From Methanomassiliicoccales archaeon (GTDB taxonomy: Archaea > Thermoplasmatota > Thermoplasmata > Methanomassiliicoccales > JACIVX01), in the NCBI GenBank assembly GCA_038850735.1, contig JAWCLO010000002.1, forward strand, positions 105,902-169,901: a stretch of DNA of 64,000 bases, written 5' to 3'. Numbering within the stretch: the first letter of the stretch is position 1; each line of letters opens with the position of its first letter. This document shows positions 1 through 55,298 of the stretch, in pieces. The notes under the pieces were generated by a model. That model ran no database searches. It was not told where the DNA came from and saw only the letters and a list, made by a program, of their open reading frames with translations. The translations under genes and the position numbers were made by a program.

Positions 1-783
1 TAGAACTTTGATAAAATTGCTCTGGCTCACCATGTATTCAATGCCGGAAACCAGCACGACTCCGCTCTTCACGCTATCAAAAAAATTCTTGATCTCGCTG
101 TAGATCAACGGGATATTTGTTGGTTCTCGAGCATACTTGATATCTCTCTCATATGATAGCCATAGCACCGGTGACTTGCCTATGTCGTACTTGAGGCGCA
201 ACTTTTCTGGATATTCCCGAACGACGCACATTCCAGGTCTTCCATGTCTTATCTGATCGACGAAAATCTCAAATGCATAAGAAGAATCATCAGATTCAAT
301 CAAATACGAATAACCTTCCTCAAGATCGTACTTTATCGGCTCGTCAGCAATTTTTCTCTCTTGTCGATCTATGAGTTCGTTTGCGGGTTTTAAAACATGC
401 ACACAGCAGTTGCTTCCGGAAGAAATGCATTCTTTCTCTTCCGCATTGTAACGAGTTTTTAGCAACCCACTAACAATTCCGGCAAGATATCCTCGAGTGA
501 AGTCGCATCGGCGACCATGGGTAGCTTCAATCGATTCTTCGAATGTGATCGTGATCTCTTCATCGGTAATCTCTTCCATGATCATCCTGCTTAACCCGGT
601 TTCTGACCATAACTGAGGGAGTATGTCTGAGAAATCTTCGTAGTCTTTGGCCTCGATACCTAACTCTCTAACAAGGTTCATCCCCGCTCTAAACCCAAAT
701 CGCTCAAGCGTCCCCGATGCCGCATCACCTTCGATCAGTTCAAGTTCTTCTCTCAGATCCAAGAGGGCTGAACCTGGTAACAC
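1..783 (-). CDS. V4R domain + DUF835 domain protein (C-terminus lies beyond the window edge)
   Basis: Hand-translated; absent from the ORF track because it has no stop in the window. GTG at 783 lies 11 nt after the GTPase stop, and the frame stays open to position 1. The N-terminal part (ITITFEESIEATHGRRCDFTRGYLAGIVSGLLKTRYNAEEKECISSGSNCCVHVL) has the V4R Cys pattern. The C-terminal part (EEGYSYLIESDD...GMCVVREYPEKLRLKYDIGKSPVLWLS...VVLVSGIEYMV) aligns with the DUF835 protein at 49569-50039. Confidence 0.7.
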   Translation of the reverse strand, partial: MLPGSALLDLREELELIEGDAASGTLERFGFRAGMNLVRELGIEAKDYEDFSDILPQLWSETGLSRMIMEEITDEEITITFEESIEATHGRRCDFTRGYLAGIVSGLLKTRYNAEEKECISSGSNCCVHVLKPANELIDRQERKIADEPIKYDLEEGYSYLIESDDSSYAFEIFVDQIRHGRPGMCVVREYPEKLRLKYDIGKSPVLWLSYERDIKYAREPTNIPLIYSEIKNFFDSVKSGVVLVSGIEYMVSQSNFIKVL

Positions 784-794
784 ATAAAAGGGTT

Positions 795-1313
795 TCAATC
801 GCACACCTCCAGCATAGCCCTGCCGAGTTTGGAAAAAGCATTTTGTACTCCTTCGCCTGTTTTGGCACTCGTCCTTACAAACTTATGGCCTATTATGCTT
901 TCTATTTCGCGCAGCAATGATTCTTTTACTTTGCATTCGAGATCACTTTTGTTTGCTATTGGCAATATTGGAACGTCACCAACCACCTCGATAAAATCAT
1001 TTCGCCATCCGACGAGATTTTTCACGGTTTCCTCCCGCGTGAGATCGCACACGAGAAGTGCACCGTTGGCACCCTTATAGTACGCATGATGCAGTGCCTG
1101 GTGAGTCTTTTGGCCAAGGATGTCCCATATCATTAATGTCAGCTCAGCTTCATCGAAATCGATGACTTTCTTCGTCACCTTTGTACCGAAGCTCGTGAGA
1201 TACTCATCTCCGAAAAAGTCATAAACAAAGCGTCTTACCAGACTTGTCTTTCCGACGCCTCCGTCACCAAGCAAGCAGATCTTCCTAATGAATTTCCTTT
1301 TTGCTTTTTCCAT
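795..1313 (-). CDS. Ras/Rab-like small GTP-binding protein
   Basis: 172 aa. All G motifs are present: G1 GDGGVGKTS, G3 WDILGQ, G4 NKSD, G5 SAK. Confidence 0.9.
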   Translation of the reverse strand: MEKAKRKFIRKICLLGDGGVGKTSLVRRFVYDFFGDEYLTSFGTKVTKKVIDFDEAELTLMIWDILGQKTHQALHHAYYKGANGALLVCDLTREETVKNLVGWRNDFIEVVGDVPILPIANKSDLECKVKESLLREIESIIGHKFVRTSAKTGEGVQNAFSKLGRAMLEVCD

Positions 1314-1420
1314 AATAATTAGACTATCATAACTATGGGCTTCTATTTAACCATAATTGTTCGAGCAGTATCCAGATGATCAGACCATGATGAGAAATCG
1401 GATTTGTCGATCCAACTCAA

Positions 1421-2188
1421 TTATCCGTAGAGAAGCGATTCATCGCCGATCCGCCGAGATTGTTTCATACCTTCAAGCGCGGCTTTCATCTGCTGTTCAA
1501 TCTGCTCAGCTTCTTTATACAATGGATCTGGGTCAAGTCTCAATTCAGGAAGCATCTTTGCAACGATCTCCAAAAGCCTTGCAGCGCCTCGTGCGTCCGG
1601 GTAATCCAATCGTGCTGGACCAAGCAAGCAGACTACGTCAATATTTAAACGTTCGCCTTCATACAGGAGGACGCCGGATAATCCCGAAACCATTCCCTCT
1701 TTCATTTCCTTGATTCCATATTTGTCCAACATCTGTCGCGTTCGCGGGGTGCTAGCAACTCCATAGATGGGAAGTTCTCCTGTTGCATCGCCTACGTTGA
1801 TGCCTTCGAGTGTAAGAATGATCTCTATTTCCTTTTCTTTGCACCACTGCAAGATGAGATCAGCAACCGGTTTCATTAAATCAGGTCTTGGAATGAATTC
1901 TGACATGATAACGACGAGCTGCTCGCATCGAATTCCGTTACTGCATGTTCTTTCCCCAGCATATATTCTAACTGGGGAAGATGGTATTCCGTCGTGAATG
2001 ATCGTATACGGTGGAAAATCCTTTGAAACCATTGTCGCAACGCGCTCAAGCTTCATCGTCCTAGAAATGAAATTGGCGGCAATACTGCCGACAAGCCCTA
2101 CGCTTGGGAATCCCACCACGGCTACCGCGTTTGGATACTTTTCGTTCTTATATTCATTAATAAAGGGATCGGTATGCATACTGAGCAT
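1421..2188 (-). CDS. PAC2-family proteasome assembly chaperone-like protein
   Basis: 255 aa. The N-terminal AVAVVGFPSVGLVGSIAANFI motif and overall layout are typical of archaeal PAC2 (COG1938) proteins. Confidence 0.75.
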   Translation of the reverse strand: MLSMHTDPFINEYKNEKYPNAVAVVGFPSVGLVGSIAANFISRTMKLERVATMVSKDFPPYTIIHDGIPSSPVRIYAGERTCSNGIRCEQLVVIMSEFIPRPDLMKPVADLILQWCKEKEIEIILTLEGINVGDATGELPIYGVASTPRTRQMLDKYGIKEMKEGMVSGLSGVLLYEGERLNIDVVCLLGPARLDYPDARGAARLLEIVAKMLPELRLDPDPLYKEAEQIEQQMKAALEGMKQSRRIGDESLLYG

Positions 2189-5468: not shown

Positions 5469-5978
5469 ATGGTTACGGTAAAAGAACCAAACCCCTCATT
5501 TGCTGAGAGTATCATTAAAGCCGGAGGGACAACGCTTAATCTTTGTTACCAATGTGGAACATGCACGGCGAGCTGTCCGTCGGGAAGACAAACAGCATTT
5601 AGGACAAGAAAGCTCATTCGAAAGGCACAGTTGGGCCTAAAAGAAGATATTCTACCATCTGACGATTTGTGGATGTGTACCACATGCTATACCTGTGTTG
5701 AACGCTGTCCCCGTCAAGTAGATATAACGGACATCATCATGATTCTGAGAAATTTTGCTGTTAAGGAAGGATATATGGCAGACACGCATAGACGAACTGC
5801 ATCATCAATGATGAACACTGGCCACACAATCCCCCTTACCGACGATTATAAAGAAATGAGGAAGCGATTAGGGCTTTCAGAAATGCCCCCAACTGTTATA
5901 GGAAATCCAGATGCTTTGGAAGCTTGGAAAAAAATCATGCAGATAACAGGTTTTGACAAACTCATCGGAGGGAAATAA
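5469..5978 (+). CDS. hdrC: heterodisulfide reductase subunit C
   Basis: Two ferredoxin-like clusters, CYQCGTCTASCP and CTTCYTCVERCP. AAGGTGAG precedes the ATG, and hdrB follows immediately. Confidence 0.9.
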   Translation: MVTVKEPNPSFAESIIKAGGTTLNLCYQCGTCTASCPSGRQTAFRTRKLIRKAQLGLKEDILPSDDLWMCTTCYTCVERCPRQVDITDIIMILRNFAVKEGYMADTHRRTASSMMNTGHTIPLTDDYKEMRKRLGLSEMPPTVIGNPDALEAWKKIMQITGFDKLIGGK

Positions 5979-6833
5979 ATGGGAGAAAAATATGCACTCT
6001 TTCTTGGTTGCATCGCGCCACTTAGGTATCCTGGCATCGAGAAGACAACAAGAGAAGTCTTTAAGGCGCTTGACGTAGACTTAGTTGATCTGGAAGGGGC
6101 TGGCTGCTGCCCAGCGCCAGGAGTCATCAGGTCATTTGATCAGGCAACTTGGCTCGCATTGGCAGCAAGAAATCTCGCCTTGGCTGAGCAGAAAGGACTT
6201 GATATCATTACAATTTGTAACGGATGCTTCGGCTCGCTTTTCGATGCCGCACACTTCCTGCACGAAAATAAGGAAAAAATAAAAGAAGTCAATAAAATAC
6301 TCAAGCAAGTTGGCCTCGAATACAGTGGTGAGAAAATAAAGGTACGCCACTTTGCTGACGTCCTTCATAAAGATATTGGCATTGAGAAAATCAAATCAAA
6401 AGTGATTAATCCCCTGAACTTTAAAGTTGCAGTGCATTACGGTTGCCACTTTGCAAAGCCCAGCAAAATCAAACAACTTGATGATCCTGAAAGACCAAGC
6501 TTGCTTGATGAGCTTGTTGAAGCAGTGGGCCCAAAGAGTATATACTATCGTGACAAGATGATGTGCTGCGGAGCTGGCGGGGGTCTCAGGACAAGAGCAA
6601 ATGAGATCGCCATGAAAATGACTGTTGAGAAGCTGGCAAATGTGAAAAAGGCTGGAGGACAGTTCATAGTTGATGTCTGTCCGTTTTGTCACCTGCAATT
6701 CGACAGAACTCAGAAGGACTTTCCAGATTACAACATTCCAGTGGTGCATCTTTCACAGCTATATGGCGTAGCCTTTGGACTTCCAAAAGAATCGATGGGT
6801 TTCGAATCACATGTTGTGCCGGTGAATCTCTGA
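5979..6833 (+). CDS. hdrB: heterodisulfide reductase subunit B
   Basis: CCG-type cysteine motifs are present (GAGCCPAPG; MMCCGAGGG...CPFCHLQF). The ATG directly abuts the hdrC stop. Confidence 0.9.
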   Translation: MGEKYALFLGCIAPLRYPGIEKTTREVFKALDVDLVDLEGAGCCPAPGVIRSFDQATWLALAARNLALAEQKGLDIITICNGCFGSLFDAAHFLHENKEKIKEVNKILKQVGLEYSGEKIKVRHFADVLHKDIGIEKIKSKVINPLNFKVAVHYGCHFAKPSKIKQLDDPERPSLLDELVEAVGPKSIYYRDKMMCCGAGGGLRTRANEIAMKMTVEKLANVKKAGGQFIVDVCPFCHLQFDRTQKDFPDYNIPVVHLSQLYGVAFGLPKESMGFESHVVPVNL

Positions 6834-48575: not shown

Positions 48576-49568
48576 AATTGAATATAAGTCACTTCGTTTA
48601 AGCCTTTGAACGCTAGGTAATTTCGGGGCGACAATTAAGTAGTGTTGGAGTGCAGCGCGCACGAATAAATTATGTGAATGAATATCCGATTCTTTACTCT
48701 TTTTCGGTAAAATTAATACAGGCCCGCAAAAAGGTTATTGAGATCGAGCTCATTGCGTTTGGTGAATGCCGGACGAATTTTGTGCGTTCCTGGTCTTTGT
48801 TCTCAATAGTAGATAACCATAGTATGTGACTGCGGAAGGGGGTCTCCTCTGGGAGATACTCTAACTGCAATTATTGCATTCACGCGAAAATATAGATTAA
48901 TTAGGCTATTTCATTCATACCTCCAAACCGCATTATCTTGGTTGGAATCCGCTCTGCGAAGGAATTTTCGACCGTGGCTAACTGGCCTCCGACCTTTCCT
49001 ATTTACGGCTCGAATAATTATTTCATACACAAAACTTCATCATTTTCTTCTAGCACGATTCATGTCAATAGAAAAATGGCATAACTCATTGATTTGAGCC
49101 ATTATTGGACGCTTTCGATATTATTATTTGGAAAAGTAACATAGATTAGCACTTCGCTGATTGATGCAAAACAAAAAAACAATGCTGATTATGGAACCAG
49201 TTTGCTTTGGGGAAAATATTGAATGCGCCATTGATTGCAGAAAAACTACGAGCATCGATGCAGAAGTTCAATCTATTAAATCTAAACGCTAAGGTATCAT
49301 TATTGACAATTTCATAAATTCATTGACCTGGCATAGAACTAAATAGGTTTAGCAAACTTCCGCGACTTACCGCCTTGTTTATTAAAACGCCTAAACAATA
49401 AAGTGATGAAATCGGCATTCGAGTATTCGCTGCTACTCTATCCGCAATAGATTAAAGGCCCTTATGCATTGTCATAATTTGCCGAAAAGAACATAGGGCA
49501 AACATATTTGAAACAGATTGCGGCCTAGCCATCTGATTCAGAATAAAAATTGTATCGAGGGGTGTCCA

Positions 49569-50039
49569 ATGAATAATGTAGAACTGGTTCTGGAAAAAGG
49601 ATCAACATATATCATCAAAGAAAAGACACCCAAATTAGCGTACCGCATTTTTTCCAATGCGATTGGAGACGGGGCTTCTGGAATCATCATAACCCGCATT
49701 TATCCTATAAAACTTAAGAAGCAATTTGAAATAGGTTCTTCAACGATATATTGGCTGACCAATGTAATAGCAGATATGGCACTTAGACCCAAAGATCTAG
49801 AAGAGTTGAGTTTTAAACTGGAGAGGTTCATTTCTACGCATGAAAACCCGATTGTAATTATTGATTGTCTCGAATACCTAATCACGAATAACGATTTTAC
49901 AACAGTCTTGAAATTTGTGCAATCAATAAGAGATCAGATTACGATAAGAAACGCAATTCTACTGATTTCTATTAACCCTCTAACATTGGATTCACATAAT
50001 CTTAAATTGCTCGAAGAAGAAGCGGATTATATCATTTAG
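49569..50039 (+). CDS. DUF835 domain protein (stand-alone)
   Basis: LEKGSTYIIKEK...GIIITRIYPIKLKKQFEIGSSTIYWLT...IVIIDCLEYLI aligns with the C-terminal half of the ORF at 1-783. The ATG at 49569 is preferred to the track start at 49518. Confidence 0.75.
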   Translation: MNNVELVLEKGSTYIIKEKTPKLAYRIFSNAIGDGASGIIITRIYPIKLKKQFEIGSSTIYWLTNVIADMALRPKDLEELSFKLERFISTHENPIVIIDCLEYLITNNDFTTVLKFVQSIRDQITIRNAILLISINPLTLDSHNLKLLEEEADYII

Positions 50040-55070: not shown

Positions 55071-55203
55071 TGCAACACATCCTGTACTCGCGAAAGCGAG
55101 ATAAATGATCTGGCTAGCCCGGAAAGATTTATTCTTAATCTTTGCGGATATTGATCTCGGCAATATATGATTATGCTCTGTAATCAGAACCCGGTAAGAA
55201 AAG

Positions 55204-55298
55204 TGCTCCGGTCGGGATTTGAACCCGAGTCTTCGGCTTTCTTTCGGAATTTATCCGTCGAAAGGCCGAGATGATTGTCCGGACTACACTACCGGAGC
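55204..55298 (-). tRNA. tRNA-Glu(UUC) with a 20-nt intron at the canonical 37/38 position
   Basis: The minus strand reads GCTCCGG-TA-GTGTAGTCCGGACAATCAT-CTCGGC-CTTTCG[ACGGATAAATTCCGAAAGAA]A-GCCGA-AGAC-TCGGG-TTCAAAT-CCCGA-CCGGAGC-A. This is the archaeal tRNA-Glu consensus. Intron CGAAAG pairs with exon CTTTCG, as in a BHB motif. CCA is not encoded, and a T-run follows. Confidence 0.85.

Follow-up and report, generated by a model that had tools for sequence, protein, structure and literature searches.

The 64,000-nucleotide (nt) stretch of DNA analyzed for the current report (hereafter the window) is from a Methanomassiliicoccales archaeon (GenBank assembly GCA_038850735.1, contig JAWCLO010000002.1, positions 105,902 to 169,901 of the forward strand). 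At its left end, on the reverse strand, it carries a gene for a Ras-like small GTPase of 172 amino acids (aa), followed by a gene for a protein that joins a V4R domain to a DUF835 domain. The co-occurrence of these two genes is strict, specific and independent of lineage, includes single-polypeptide fusions and extends beyond local synteny. The sequences point to an uncharacterized GTPase signaling module with a partner protein that appears to be unlike any known GTPase regulator. We lean, with modest confidence, toward the interpretation that the pair constitutes a dedicated two-gene operon in which a Rab/Rup-like GTPase and its cognate V4R-DUF835 partner would work together as a GTPase/sensor-scaffold switch; the binding, the contact domain, the signal and the output of such a switch are what we infer.

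The initial annotation of this DNA, which had been made from the sequence alone, proposed a check of whether the adjacency of the two genes is conserved in related genomes. It is: the GTPase gene lies directly before the partner gene in 47/47 Methanomassiliicoccales loci for which upstream sequence is available, and the two genes are also linked in every assessable distant lineage. A profile search covered 1.84 billion representatives, and the best 150 of ~3,300 DUF835 matches were inspected; the matches listed include ~20 clusters (50% identity) with a full V4R+DUF835 architecture, down to ~21-30% identity, as well as many proteins with DUF835 behind other domains. Four distant representatives each adjoin a Ras-like gene, with flanks that are unrelated to those of the window: two GTPase genes lie upstream of the V4R-DUF835 gene in P0270, one lies upstream in P0390, one upstream with a 4-nt overlap and another downstream in P0396, and in P0254 the order is swapped, with the GTPase gene downstream. 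A scan of metagenomes added 79 further loci, in which every V4R+DUF835 gene with flanking sequence has a GTPase gene within 300 nt; on two short contigs (L064 and L085) the first 22-33 GTPase residues are visible at the contig end. Genomes and metagenomes taken together, the GTPase is adjacent to or fused with 80/82 V4R-DUF835 genes; the other two, together with an additional copy truncated at its 5' end (L050), come from cut contigs and were left unscored. Grouped at 60% identity, the V4R-DUF835 proteins form 17 clusters, and none that can be assessed is without the GTPase; at 45% identity, the GTPase is present in 7/7 clusters.

The linkage is also specific. In ~58 loci where DUF835 occurs in other architectures, no Ras-like gene was detected within 3 kb (Fisher p ~4e-12 at the cluster level for the GTPase link in V4R-DUF835 versus other DUF835 architectures), and no gene family besides the pair is common to all of the lineages. 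These results bear on the possibility that the two genes are co-regulated neighbors without direct molecular interplay, held together by inherited synteny or by selection for co-expression only. The extended synteny seen in Methanomassiliicoccales does illustrate conservation without an obvious functional link, but the adjacency of this pair outlasts a complete turnover of the other neighbors, an inversion of gene order and duplication of paralogs; it is a property of the V4R-DUF835 subfamily rather than of DUF835 genes at large, and it comes with a conserved stop/start overlap and two fusions. We regard simple neighborhood as very unlikely to account for the pairing. The proposal of the initial annotation that the two proteins form a signaling pair is supported by the profile hidden Markov model (HMM) matches described below, by the 80/82 adjacency and its recurrence in distant lineages, by its specificity and by the fusions.

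The fusions were sought with a GTPase-family HMM among the 150 listed representatives and confirmed with Pfam. Two were found, P0303 (527 aa), which consists of Ras, V4R-like and DUF835 domains, and P0376 (394 aa), in which a Ras domain is connected to DUF835 through an 80-aa linker and there is no V4R domain. Both open reading frames (ORFs) are continuous, and their genomic contexts are unrelated. The retention of DUF835 without V4R in P0376 points to DUF835 as the domain that faces the GTPase. A search for homologs of P0303 returned only P0303 itself and one DUF835 protein.

At the locus in the window, the partner gene runs off the left edge. Its full ORF, the recovery of which had been recommended in the initial annotation, was obtained from the 100%-identical contigs L001 and L002 and encodes 319 aa; three contigs that carry the same locus match the GTPase exactly, among them a 10.5-kb Logan contig and the Methanomassiliicoccales metagenome-assembled genome (MAG) GCA_038870155.1. 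We place the start codon of the partner gene at the TTG at 798-796, because the N-terminus that is common to ~100 homologs, M-x-P-F-(F/Y)-V-(M/L)-P-G-S-A-L, begins upstream of the GTG at 783; gene callers choose the same TTG. An 11-nt spacer between the two genes had been assumed earlier from the GTG and must be corrected, since the TTG overlaps the GTPase stop codon TGA (797-795) by 4 nt and is preceded by a Shine-Dalgarno-like motif, GGAGGT, at 805-810. The junction has the form ATGA/TTGA (-4), TGATG (-1) or 0/+1 nt in all of 49 orthologous loci, an arrangement that reads as a conserved signature of translational coupling. In addition, an element of the form (A/G)TTAAATA, TTATATA or AATATATAG occurs 32-38 nt before the GTPase start codon in ~42/49 orthologous loci and suggests that the pair may have its own promoter, downstream of the neighboring PAC2 gene. 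Rfam and ARAGORN detected no RNA elements near the pair.

The profile searches for Ras, V4R and DUF835 that had been suggested at the outset yielded matches of 117.5, 31.4 (marginal) and 61.4 bits, respectively, and the domain E-values for the GTPase and its partner are far below chance. For the GTPase, the Ras match (5.6e-34) is followed by Roc (2.8e-25) and Arf (8.3e-10, 38.8 bits), and the NCBIfam model small_GTP matches at 68.5 bits. The earlier reading of a 172-aa GTPase with intact G1-G5 motifs is confirmed (Table 1); the protein shows the motif set of the Ras superfamily (G1 GxxxxGK[ST], switch-I Thr, DxxGQ, NKxD and SAK) in a single domain within the size range of 150-240 aa. All partner-linked GTPase homologs keep the G motifs and the family signature. 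Among solved structures, the Thorarchaeota Rab 7ezb comes closest (1.3e-28), ahead of Rab21, Sec4, Rab8A, Rab1B and Ypt7, and the segments YYKGA and IWDILGQ are reminiscent of RabF4 and RabF2. The protein ends in ...MLEVCD straight after its last helix; it has no prenylatable Cys tail, and its single Cys is not conserved in the homologs. The window carries no other Ras-like ORF and only one V4R ORF. In agreement with the initial annotation, no gene for a Roadblock/MglB protein accompanies the pair: Pfam detected no Robl_LC7/Roadblock domain in the operon genes or within ~5 kb on either side, and single-sequence phmmer, a weak test, found none in the whole window.

The view that the downstream ORF is a fusion of V4R to DUF835 has held up in searches with Pfam, with profiles against PDB and with structures. 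For the N-terminal part, most of the 120 partner homologs listed carry a precomputed PF02830 assignment, and the PDB profile search returned PoxR (E=0.0019) and MopR (0.0099), aligned over ~145 residues. Residues C98, E121, C124 and C132 align with the zinc-site ligands of PoxR and MopR, and each is at least 90% conserved in 98 homologs. In NCBIfam, this part of the partner finds its top match in the V4R domain of MsvR, a redox regulator of methanogens (4e-9), and the 26/8 spacing of the partner cysteines is identical to that of C206, C232 and C240 in MaMsvR, the three functional, redox-responsive cysteines of that regulator (PMC3729527). An AlphaFold2 (AF2) model of the full partner has a mean predicted local distance difference test score (pLDDT) of 86.7 and a predicted template modeling score (pTM) of 0.57, with pLDDT <50 at residues 142-147; the contrast between the two scores suggests two independently placed domains. 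Foldseek matched this model to DmpR, PoxR and MopR at 1e-7 to 1e-10 (6iy8 at the top), and also to TRAPPC3/Bet3 (~1e-5, template modeling (TM) score ~0.6-0.67), MJ1460, Thor-TRAPPC3 and H-NOX. By these comparisons, the N-terminal part of the partner has the alpha-beta fold of V4R/Bet3 and is a bona fide V4R domain that is closest to MsvR and PoxR.

For the C-terminal part, Pfam DUF835 (PF05763) matches the portion inside the window at 1e-16, well above the cut-off of 33.1 bits. The conserved motifs are REYPEK, WLS, REPT and SGxEY, with LERE just beyond the window edge, and three arginines (R194, R224 and R302) are invariant. The Walker A motif, [AG]xxxxGK[ST], is absent from 120/120 partner homologs and from the stand-alone DUF835 paralog encoded elsewhere in the window. 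The C-terminal half of the AF2 model matches FlaH in Foldseek, and there is a weak ArlH/FlaH match in NCBIfam. The model of the stand-alone paralog (pLDDT 91.5, pTM 0.87) matches FlaH (1e-6, TM 0.70), KaiC (TM up to 0.72), RecA, Rad51 and DnaB. The KaiC/RecA-like fold combined with the loss of Walker A makes DUF835 a P-loop-less KaiC/RecA-fold domain, in agreement with its published label, "iKaiC" (PMC5847659). Among the representatives listed, DUF835 is consistently C-terminal, behind input domains that include 7TM (seven-transmembrane), REC, PAS, GAF, AAA+ and V4R. One of these proteins, P0312 (738 aa), has an AAA+ ATPase (PF00004 plus lid) fused N-terminally to DUF835, which places an active-type NTPase before a P-loop-less KaiC-like domain.

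From this evidence the following mechanism can be drawn. The operon would be expressed from its own TATA-like promoter, and translational coupling of its cistrons would enforce a matched stoichiometry of the two products. The partner would be cytoplasmic, with V4R as its N-terminal sensor and, at the C-terminus, a DUF835 domain of the P-loop-less KaiC/RecA fold, and the GTPase would be a nucleotide-dependent switch that docks on DUF835, taking the input role that is held in other archaeal proteins by REC, PAS, GAF or 7TM domains fused before DUF835. Since the GTPase stands in the input position before DUF835 in the fusions, even in the one without V4R, it might act on DUF835 and is probably bound by it. 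V4R might contribute another input by way of its Cys3/Glu metal site, which would respond either to the redox state, like MsvR, or to a small hydrophobic ligand, like MopR and PoxR. The combined state of GTPase and V4R would set the conformation or the oligomerization of DUF835 and would probably feed back on the GTPase cycle. The partner may also act reciprocally as a GTPase-activating protein (GAP) or a guanine nucleotide exchange factor (GEF), with the GTPase contributing its own catalytic Gln and the partner its invariant arginines. The initial annotation had likewise put forward GAP, GEF or effector as candidate roles of the partner.

Several observations weigh against this interpretation. 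The V4R domain scores barely above the Pfam cut-off (2e-07, at a cut-off of 31 bits), and its Cys/Glu site is lost in the distant proteins P0249, P0270, P0271, P0333, P0335 and P0303, which implies that the pairing does not depend on sensing of a metal or of redox state. Each of the two fusions is a singleton; P0303 might be an indel artifact, and P0376 has a degenerate G3 motif (DIGL). The 47 Methanomassiliicoccales loci are not independent observations, because the whole ~10-kb neighborhood is syntenic in this order, and outside the order the sources are labeled only "Thermoplasmata/Thermoplasmatota archaeon".

The main alternative to the sensor-scaffold switch gives the partner a purely regulatory place upstream of the GTPase, as a V4R-gated GEF or GAP, and has the GTPase act on unlinked effectors. 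We consider this possible, although less than likely. It would accord with the precedent of co-encoded partners with a regulatory function (MglB as the GAP that acts on MglA, ArvB and ArvC as a proposed GEF and GAP), and the catalytic Gln in DILGQ could accept an Arg finger from among the invariant arginines of the partner; however, the partner exhibits no sequence-level relationship to known GAP or GEF domains, DUF835 behaves elsewhere as an output-side module behind input domains, the P0376 fusion keeps DUF835 without V4R, and some lineages dispense with the V4R metal site. A special case of this alternative resembles the TRAPP complex, in that a V4R domain of the Bet3/TRAPPC3 fold would participate in exchanging the nucleotide of a Rab-like GTPase. 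The structural matches of the V4R model to TRAPPC3/Bet3 are in its favor, as are the best solved relatives of the GTPase, which include Rab1/Ypt-type Rabs and the Thorarchaeota Rab. In TRAPP, longin and roadblock-type subunits form most of the Rab-binding surface, and no such subunits are co-encoded at this locus. In the strongest form of the idea, the V4R domain, carried by an inactive KaiC-like scaffold, would exert direct control over nucleotide exchange or hydrolysis by the Rab-like GTPase. We regard this as unlikely; if true, it would reveal a prokaryotic, non-Asgard counterpart of the eukaryotic relationship between TRAPP and Rab, perhaps one that is related to it by evolution, as well as the first identified class of regulators for archaeal Rup/Rab-like GTPases.

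The genes that surround the pair in Methanomassiliicoccales, in the syntenic order HycI, M16, PAC2, GTPase, partner, PvlArgDC and DUF5817, raise the question of whether the pair serves local functions, such as proteasome assembly (PAC2) or arginine decarboxylation and agmatine synthesis (PvlArgDC, DUF5817). The initial annotation had listed the PAC2-like gene, 107 nt upstream on the same strand, and the second, stand-alone DUF835 gene at 49569-50039 beside the pair. The presence of both is confirmed (Pfam 1.2e-42 and 2.2e-33), but neither belongs to the module. PAC2 is absent or displaced in the orthologous loci L021, L027, L037, L043 and L046, is separated by ~600-nt gaps in others and is lacking at distant loci, and the conserved TATA-like element lies between it and the GTPase gene. 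In each Methanomassiliicoccales locus with an intact downstream neighborhood, PvlArgDC, which is likewise outside the module, comes after the partner gene at a distance of ~15-290 nt (mostly 45-70), and DUF5817 follows the pair in nearly all loci of the order, with ~ten loci lacking it; PvlArgDC and DUF5817 may be co-transcribed with the partner gene. Outside the order, no cluster has PAC2, PvlArgDC or DUF5817 beside the pair, save for DUF5817 in one close cluster. Despite the proximity of PAC2 and PvlArgDC, a role of the pair in the business of these neighbors is thus extremely unlikely, and we reject a functional tie to PAC2, PvlArgDC or DUF5817, which as neighbors are confined to Methanomassiliicoccales. 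We also reject a tie of the GTPase to the stand-alone DUF835 gene, which has conserved neighbors of its own (archease, PhoU_div and PHO4) and no GTPase neighbor; DUF835-only loci never carry the GTPase. Small NTPases paired with sensors are common in defense islands, and a module for anti-virus defense or a mobile-element cargo therefore deserves mention, but its probability is close to negligible: PADLOC returned sub-threshold noise only (the PtuA P-loop at 18.5 bits and Csx23 at 16.9 bits), the neighborhood is stable, syntenic and of a housekeeping type in 47 genomes, each genome has one copy, and no integrase or transposase occurs in the orthologous loci.

Table 1. Features of the GTPase/V4R-DUF835 locus and related genes (window coordinates unless a contig is named; res, residues)
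Feature	Position	Strand	Basis or remark
PAC2-family gene, 255 aa	1421-2188	-	Pfam PAC2 1.2e-42; 107 nt upstream of GTPase
TATA-box-like element GTTAAATA	1344..1351	-	5' end 38 nt upstream of GTPase ATG
Rab/Rup-like small GTPase gene, 172 aa	795..1313	-	ORF, Pfam Ras, NCBIfam small_GTP
GTPase G1 GDGGVGKT	res 16-23 = nt 1245-1268	-	sequence reading
GTPase switch-I Thr	T40	-	sequence reading
GTPase G3 DILGQ	res 64-68 = nt 1110-1124	-	sequence reading
GTPase G4 NKSD	res 121-124 = nt 942-953	-	sequence reading
GTPase G5 SAK	res 149-151 = nt 861-869	-	sequence reading
Translational-coupling junction (GGAGGT 805-810, TTG 796-798, TGA 795-797)	795..810	-	sequence and 49 orthologous junctions
V4R-DUF835 partner, 5' 266 codons	1..798	-	translation; other 53 codons left of window
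V4R sensor domain, ~res 6-140	379..783	-	Pfam V4R, PoxR/MopR profile alignment, Foldseek
Putative Zn/redox site	C98 505-507, E121 436-438, C124 427-429, C132 403-405	-	alignment
Interdomain linker, ~res 141-159	322..378	-	variable alignment columns, predicted disorder
DUF835 domain, ~res 160-306 (in-window to res 266)	1..321	-	Pfam DUF835
Stand-alone DUF835 gene	49569-50039	+	Pfam 2.2e-33, 115.4 bits
Stand-alone V4R genes after V4R-DUF835	L065 4113-4535; L070 4047-4472; L075 2319-2747; L076 1765-2190; L077 1520-1945; L081 959-1384; L128 587-1012		

A number of variants of the locus were encountered in the course of the analysis. In one MAG related to Methanomassiliicoccales, the GTPase gene is duplicated in tandem before the partner gene (L024 3324-4485). 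The GTPase gene is split over two frames in L033 (1677-2133), and the partner lacks residues ~68-95 in L047 (5001-5817); either case might represent a pseudogene or an assembly error. In several distant lineages a second, longer Ras-like paralog (~270-325 aa) lies in the same cluster (L055 2440-3414, L067 1632-2450, L074 1559-2437, L078 1583-2437 and L061 4941-5774). The C-terminal extensions (~100-150 aa) of these paralogs have no Pfam match, and a Rag-like architecture of a GTPase plus an unknown domain is possible. Two metagenomic lineages have a stand-alone V4R gene directly 3' of V4R-DUF835, in the arrangement GTPase(-GTPase)-V4R-DUF835-V4R. A trio of Robl_LC7, V4R and CBS genes lies ~2 kb from the GTPase/V4R-DUF835/GTPase cluster of a Thermoplasmatota MAG (L061 6808-8165, minus strand), and its Robl_LC7 gene is the sole Roadblock gene seen near any module. 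In two distant lineages that are unrelated to each other (L055 5896-9068 and L058 7292-8014), genes for KaiC-type ATPases (PF06745) with an intact P-loop lie at 1-3 kb from the module; this may be a coincidence, or it may connect active KaiC with iKaiC components.

Among the neighboring genes, PvlArgDC is ~71-99% identical across the order; in L001, PvlArgDC and DUF5817 are at 5882-6795, just left of the window, and they are seen in L004-L052 as well. The ~1 kb between archease and the stand-alone DUF835 gene (48576-49568) has no ORF of at least 60 aa and no Rfam match, and the same uncalled gap precedes the stand-alone DUF835 gene in the identical contigs L143-L145; the gap might serve as a long leader or a regulatory region, or it might be the decayed portion of an N-terminal sensor. 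The window contains a single RNA gene, for tRNA-Arg(TCG), at 55203-55298 on the minus strand; at 96 nt it is too long for a plain tRNA and probably carries an archaeal intron.

No description of the GTPase/V4R-DUF835 pair was found in the open literature searched or in the two main surveys of small GTPases in prokaryotes and archaea; an earlier mention of a DUF835-GTPase neighborhood in the 2017 KaiC-hub paper is possible. In the Asgard archaeon MK-D1, the GTPase genes do not generally share operons with genes for roadblock, longin or TRAPPC3 proteins (Tran 2024, PMC10933270), and for this reason Asgard GTPases cannot be matched to candidate regulators (PMC10933270). The locus described here supplies a one-to-one, translationally coupled GTPase/partner pair that is conserved across divergent Thermoplasmatota and is present in Methanomassiliicoccales, a human-associated order of methanogens. 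It represents a tractable, strictly paired system for the uncharacterized class of archaeal Rab-like GTPases, the partners of which are directly testable in vitro because both proteins of the pair are small and soluble (172 and 319 aa). The pair would assign a first functional context to DUF835, and the partner joins two domains of evolutionary interest, V4R as the proposed ancestor of Bet3 and an inactivated KaiC as a proposed archaeal signaling hub.

To judge from its motifs, the GTPase fits the Rup branch of prokaryotic Ras-superfamily GTPases, with which it shares a single-domain organization, eukaryote-like DxxGQ, NKxD and SAK motifs and the lack of genomic coupling to MglB, the latter being a criterion that separates Rup from MglA (PMC4316618). 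It also fits the archaeal "Rab-like" proteins noted by Surkont and Pereira-Leal (2016, PMC4915359), of which one each was found in a "Thermoplasmatales archaeon" and in Aciduliprofundum; the absence of a C-terminal prenylation motif is a further likeness to this group. No member of the Rup/Rab-like prokaryotic GTPases has been characterized, no regulator or effector is known for them, and the archaeal Group 2 Rup proteins have no conserved proteins in their gene neighborhoods (Wuichet and Sogaard-Andersen 2015, PMC4316618). The strictly conserved and translationally coupled partner is what sets the present pair apart from the proteins in these surveys.

Small GTPases that are co-encoded with a cognate partner are known in prokaryotes from MglA/MglB and from the actinobacterial conservon, and the conservon also resembles the present operon in having a sensor protein in the same operon as the GTPase. 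The partner in those systems is a Roadblock/LC7 protein, whereas here it is V4R plus a P-loop-less KaiC-like domain. The G3 motif of MglA-type proteins has lost the conserved Asp (PMC4316618); our GTPase keeps both Asp and Gln in its G3 motif, DILGQ, which argues for the Rup type rather than the MglA type, and assignment to the MglA family can be rejected on this ground and on the lack of an MglB neighbor. The ArvA/B/C vesiculation operon of Euryarchaeota offers another example of an archaeal small GTPase with a conserved downstream partner. ArvA is Arf-like (annotated as MMR_HSR1) with an N-terminal amphipathic helix, and its downstream genes for ArvB (DUF2073, SepF-like) and ArvC (DUF2072, a Zn ribbon), which are conserved in >90% of genomes, encode a proposed GEF and GAP without eukaryotic homology (Mills et al. 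2024, PMC10927574). Our GTPase is not ArvA, given its far better match to Ras than to Arf and its downstream genes (V4R-DUF835, PvlArgDC and DUF5817), and Pfam found neither DUF2072 nor DUF2073 at the locus (window plus identical contigs).

The partner can be compared with systems on either side of the prokaryote-eukaryote divide. V4R has been proposed as the ancestor of the TRAPP core subunit Bet3 (Podar 2008, PMC2253512), and the association of a V4R/Bet3-fold domain with a Rab-like GTPase is a likeness to TRAPP that is echoed by Foldseek matches to TRAPPC3 from mouse, human, Naegleria and Drosophila and to Thor-TRAPPC3. The similarity is structural only (12-17% identity), and here the domain shares a single polypeptide with a KaiC-like domain; the partner has no TRAPP_Bet3 match in Pfam, no longin genes are nearby, and among V4R proteins it stands nearest to MsvR and the phenol sensors of bacteria. 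We thus do not regard the partner as TRAPPC3/Bet3. With XylR, DmpR, MopR and PoxR it shares an N-terminal V4R domain with the same Cys/Glu/Cys/Cys zinc-site positions, and with DmpR, its top structural match, the placement of the sensor before a domain of P-loop-NTPase fold. It is not an NtrC-type phenol sensor, in that Pfam shows no AAA+ sigma-54 module and no helix-turn-helix (HTH) domain, and DUF835 occupies the C-terminus. The three-Cys spacing likens it to MsvR; it is not MsvR itself, because the match covers the V4R part only, at 36.5 bits versus an equivalog cut-off of 220, and there is no HTH.

A further parallel for the overall architecture of the partner is with the iKaiC/DUF835 output domains, P-loop-less members of the KaiC superfamily that stand C-terminal to input domains, for example as REC-DUF835 and REC-PAS-PAS-DUF835 response regulators in Methanomicrobia and Thermoplasmata (Galperin et al. 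2018, PMC5847659). The difference lies in the nature of the input, which here would consist of V4R together with a separately encoded, rarely fused, Ras-like GTPase, a link that is confined to the V4R-DUF835 subfamily.

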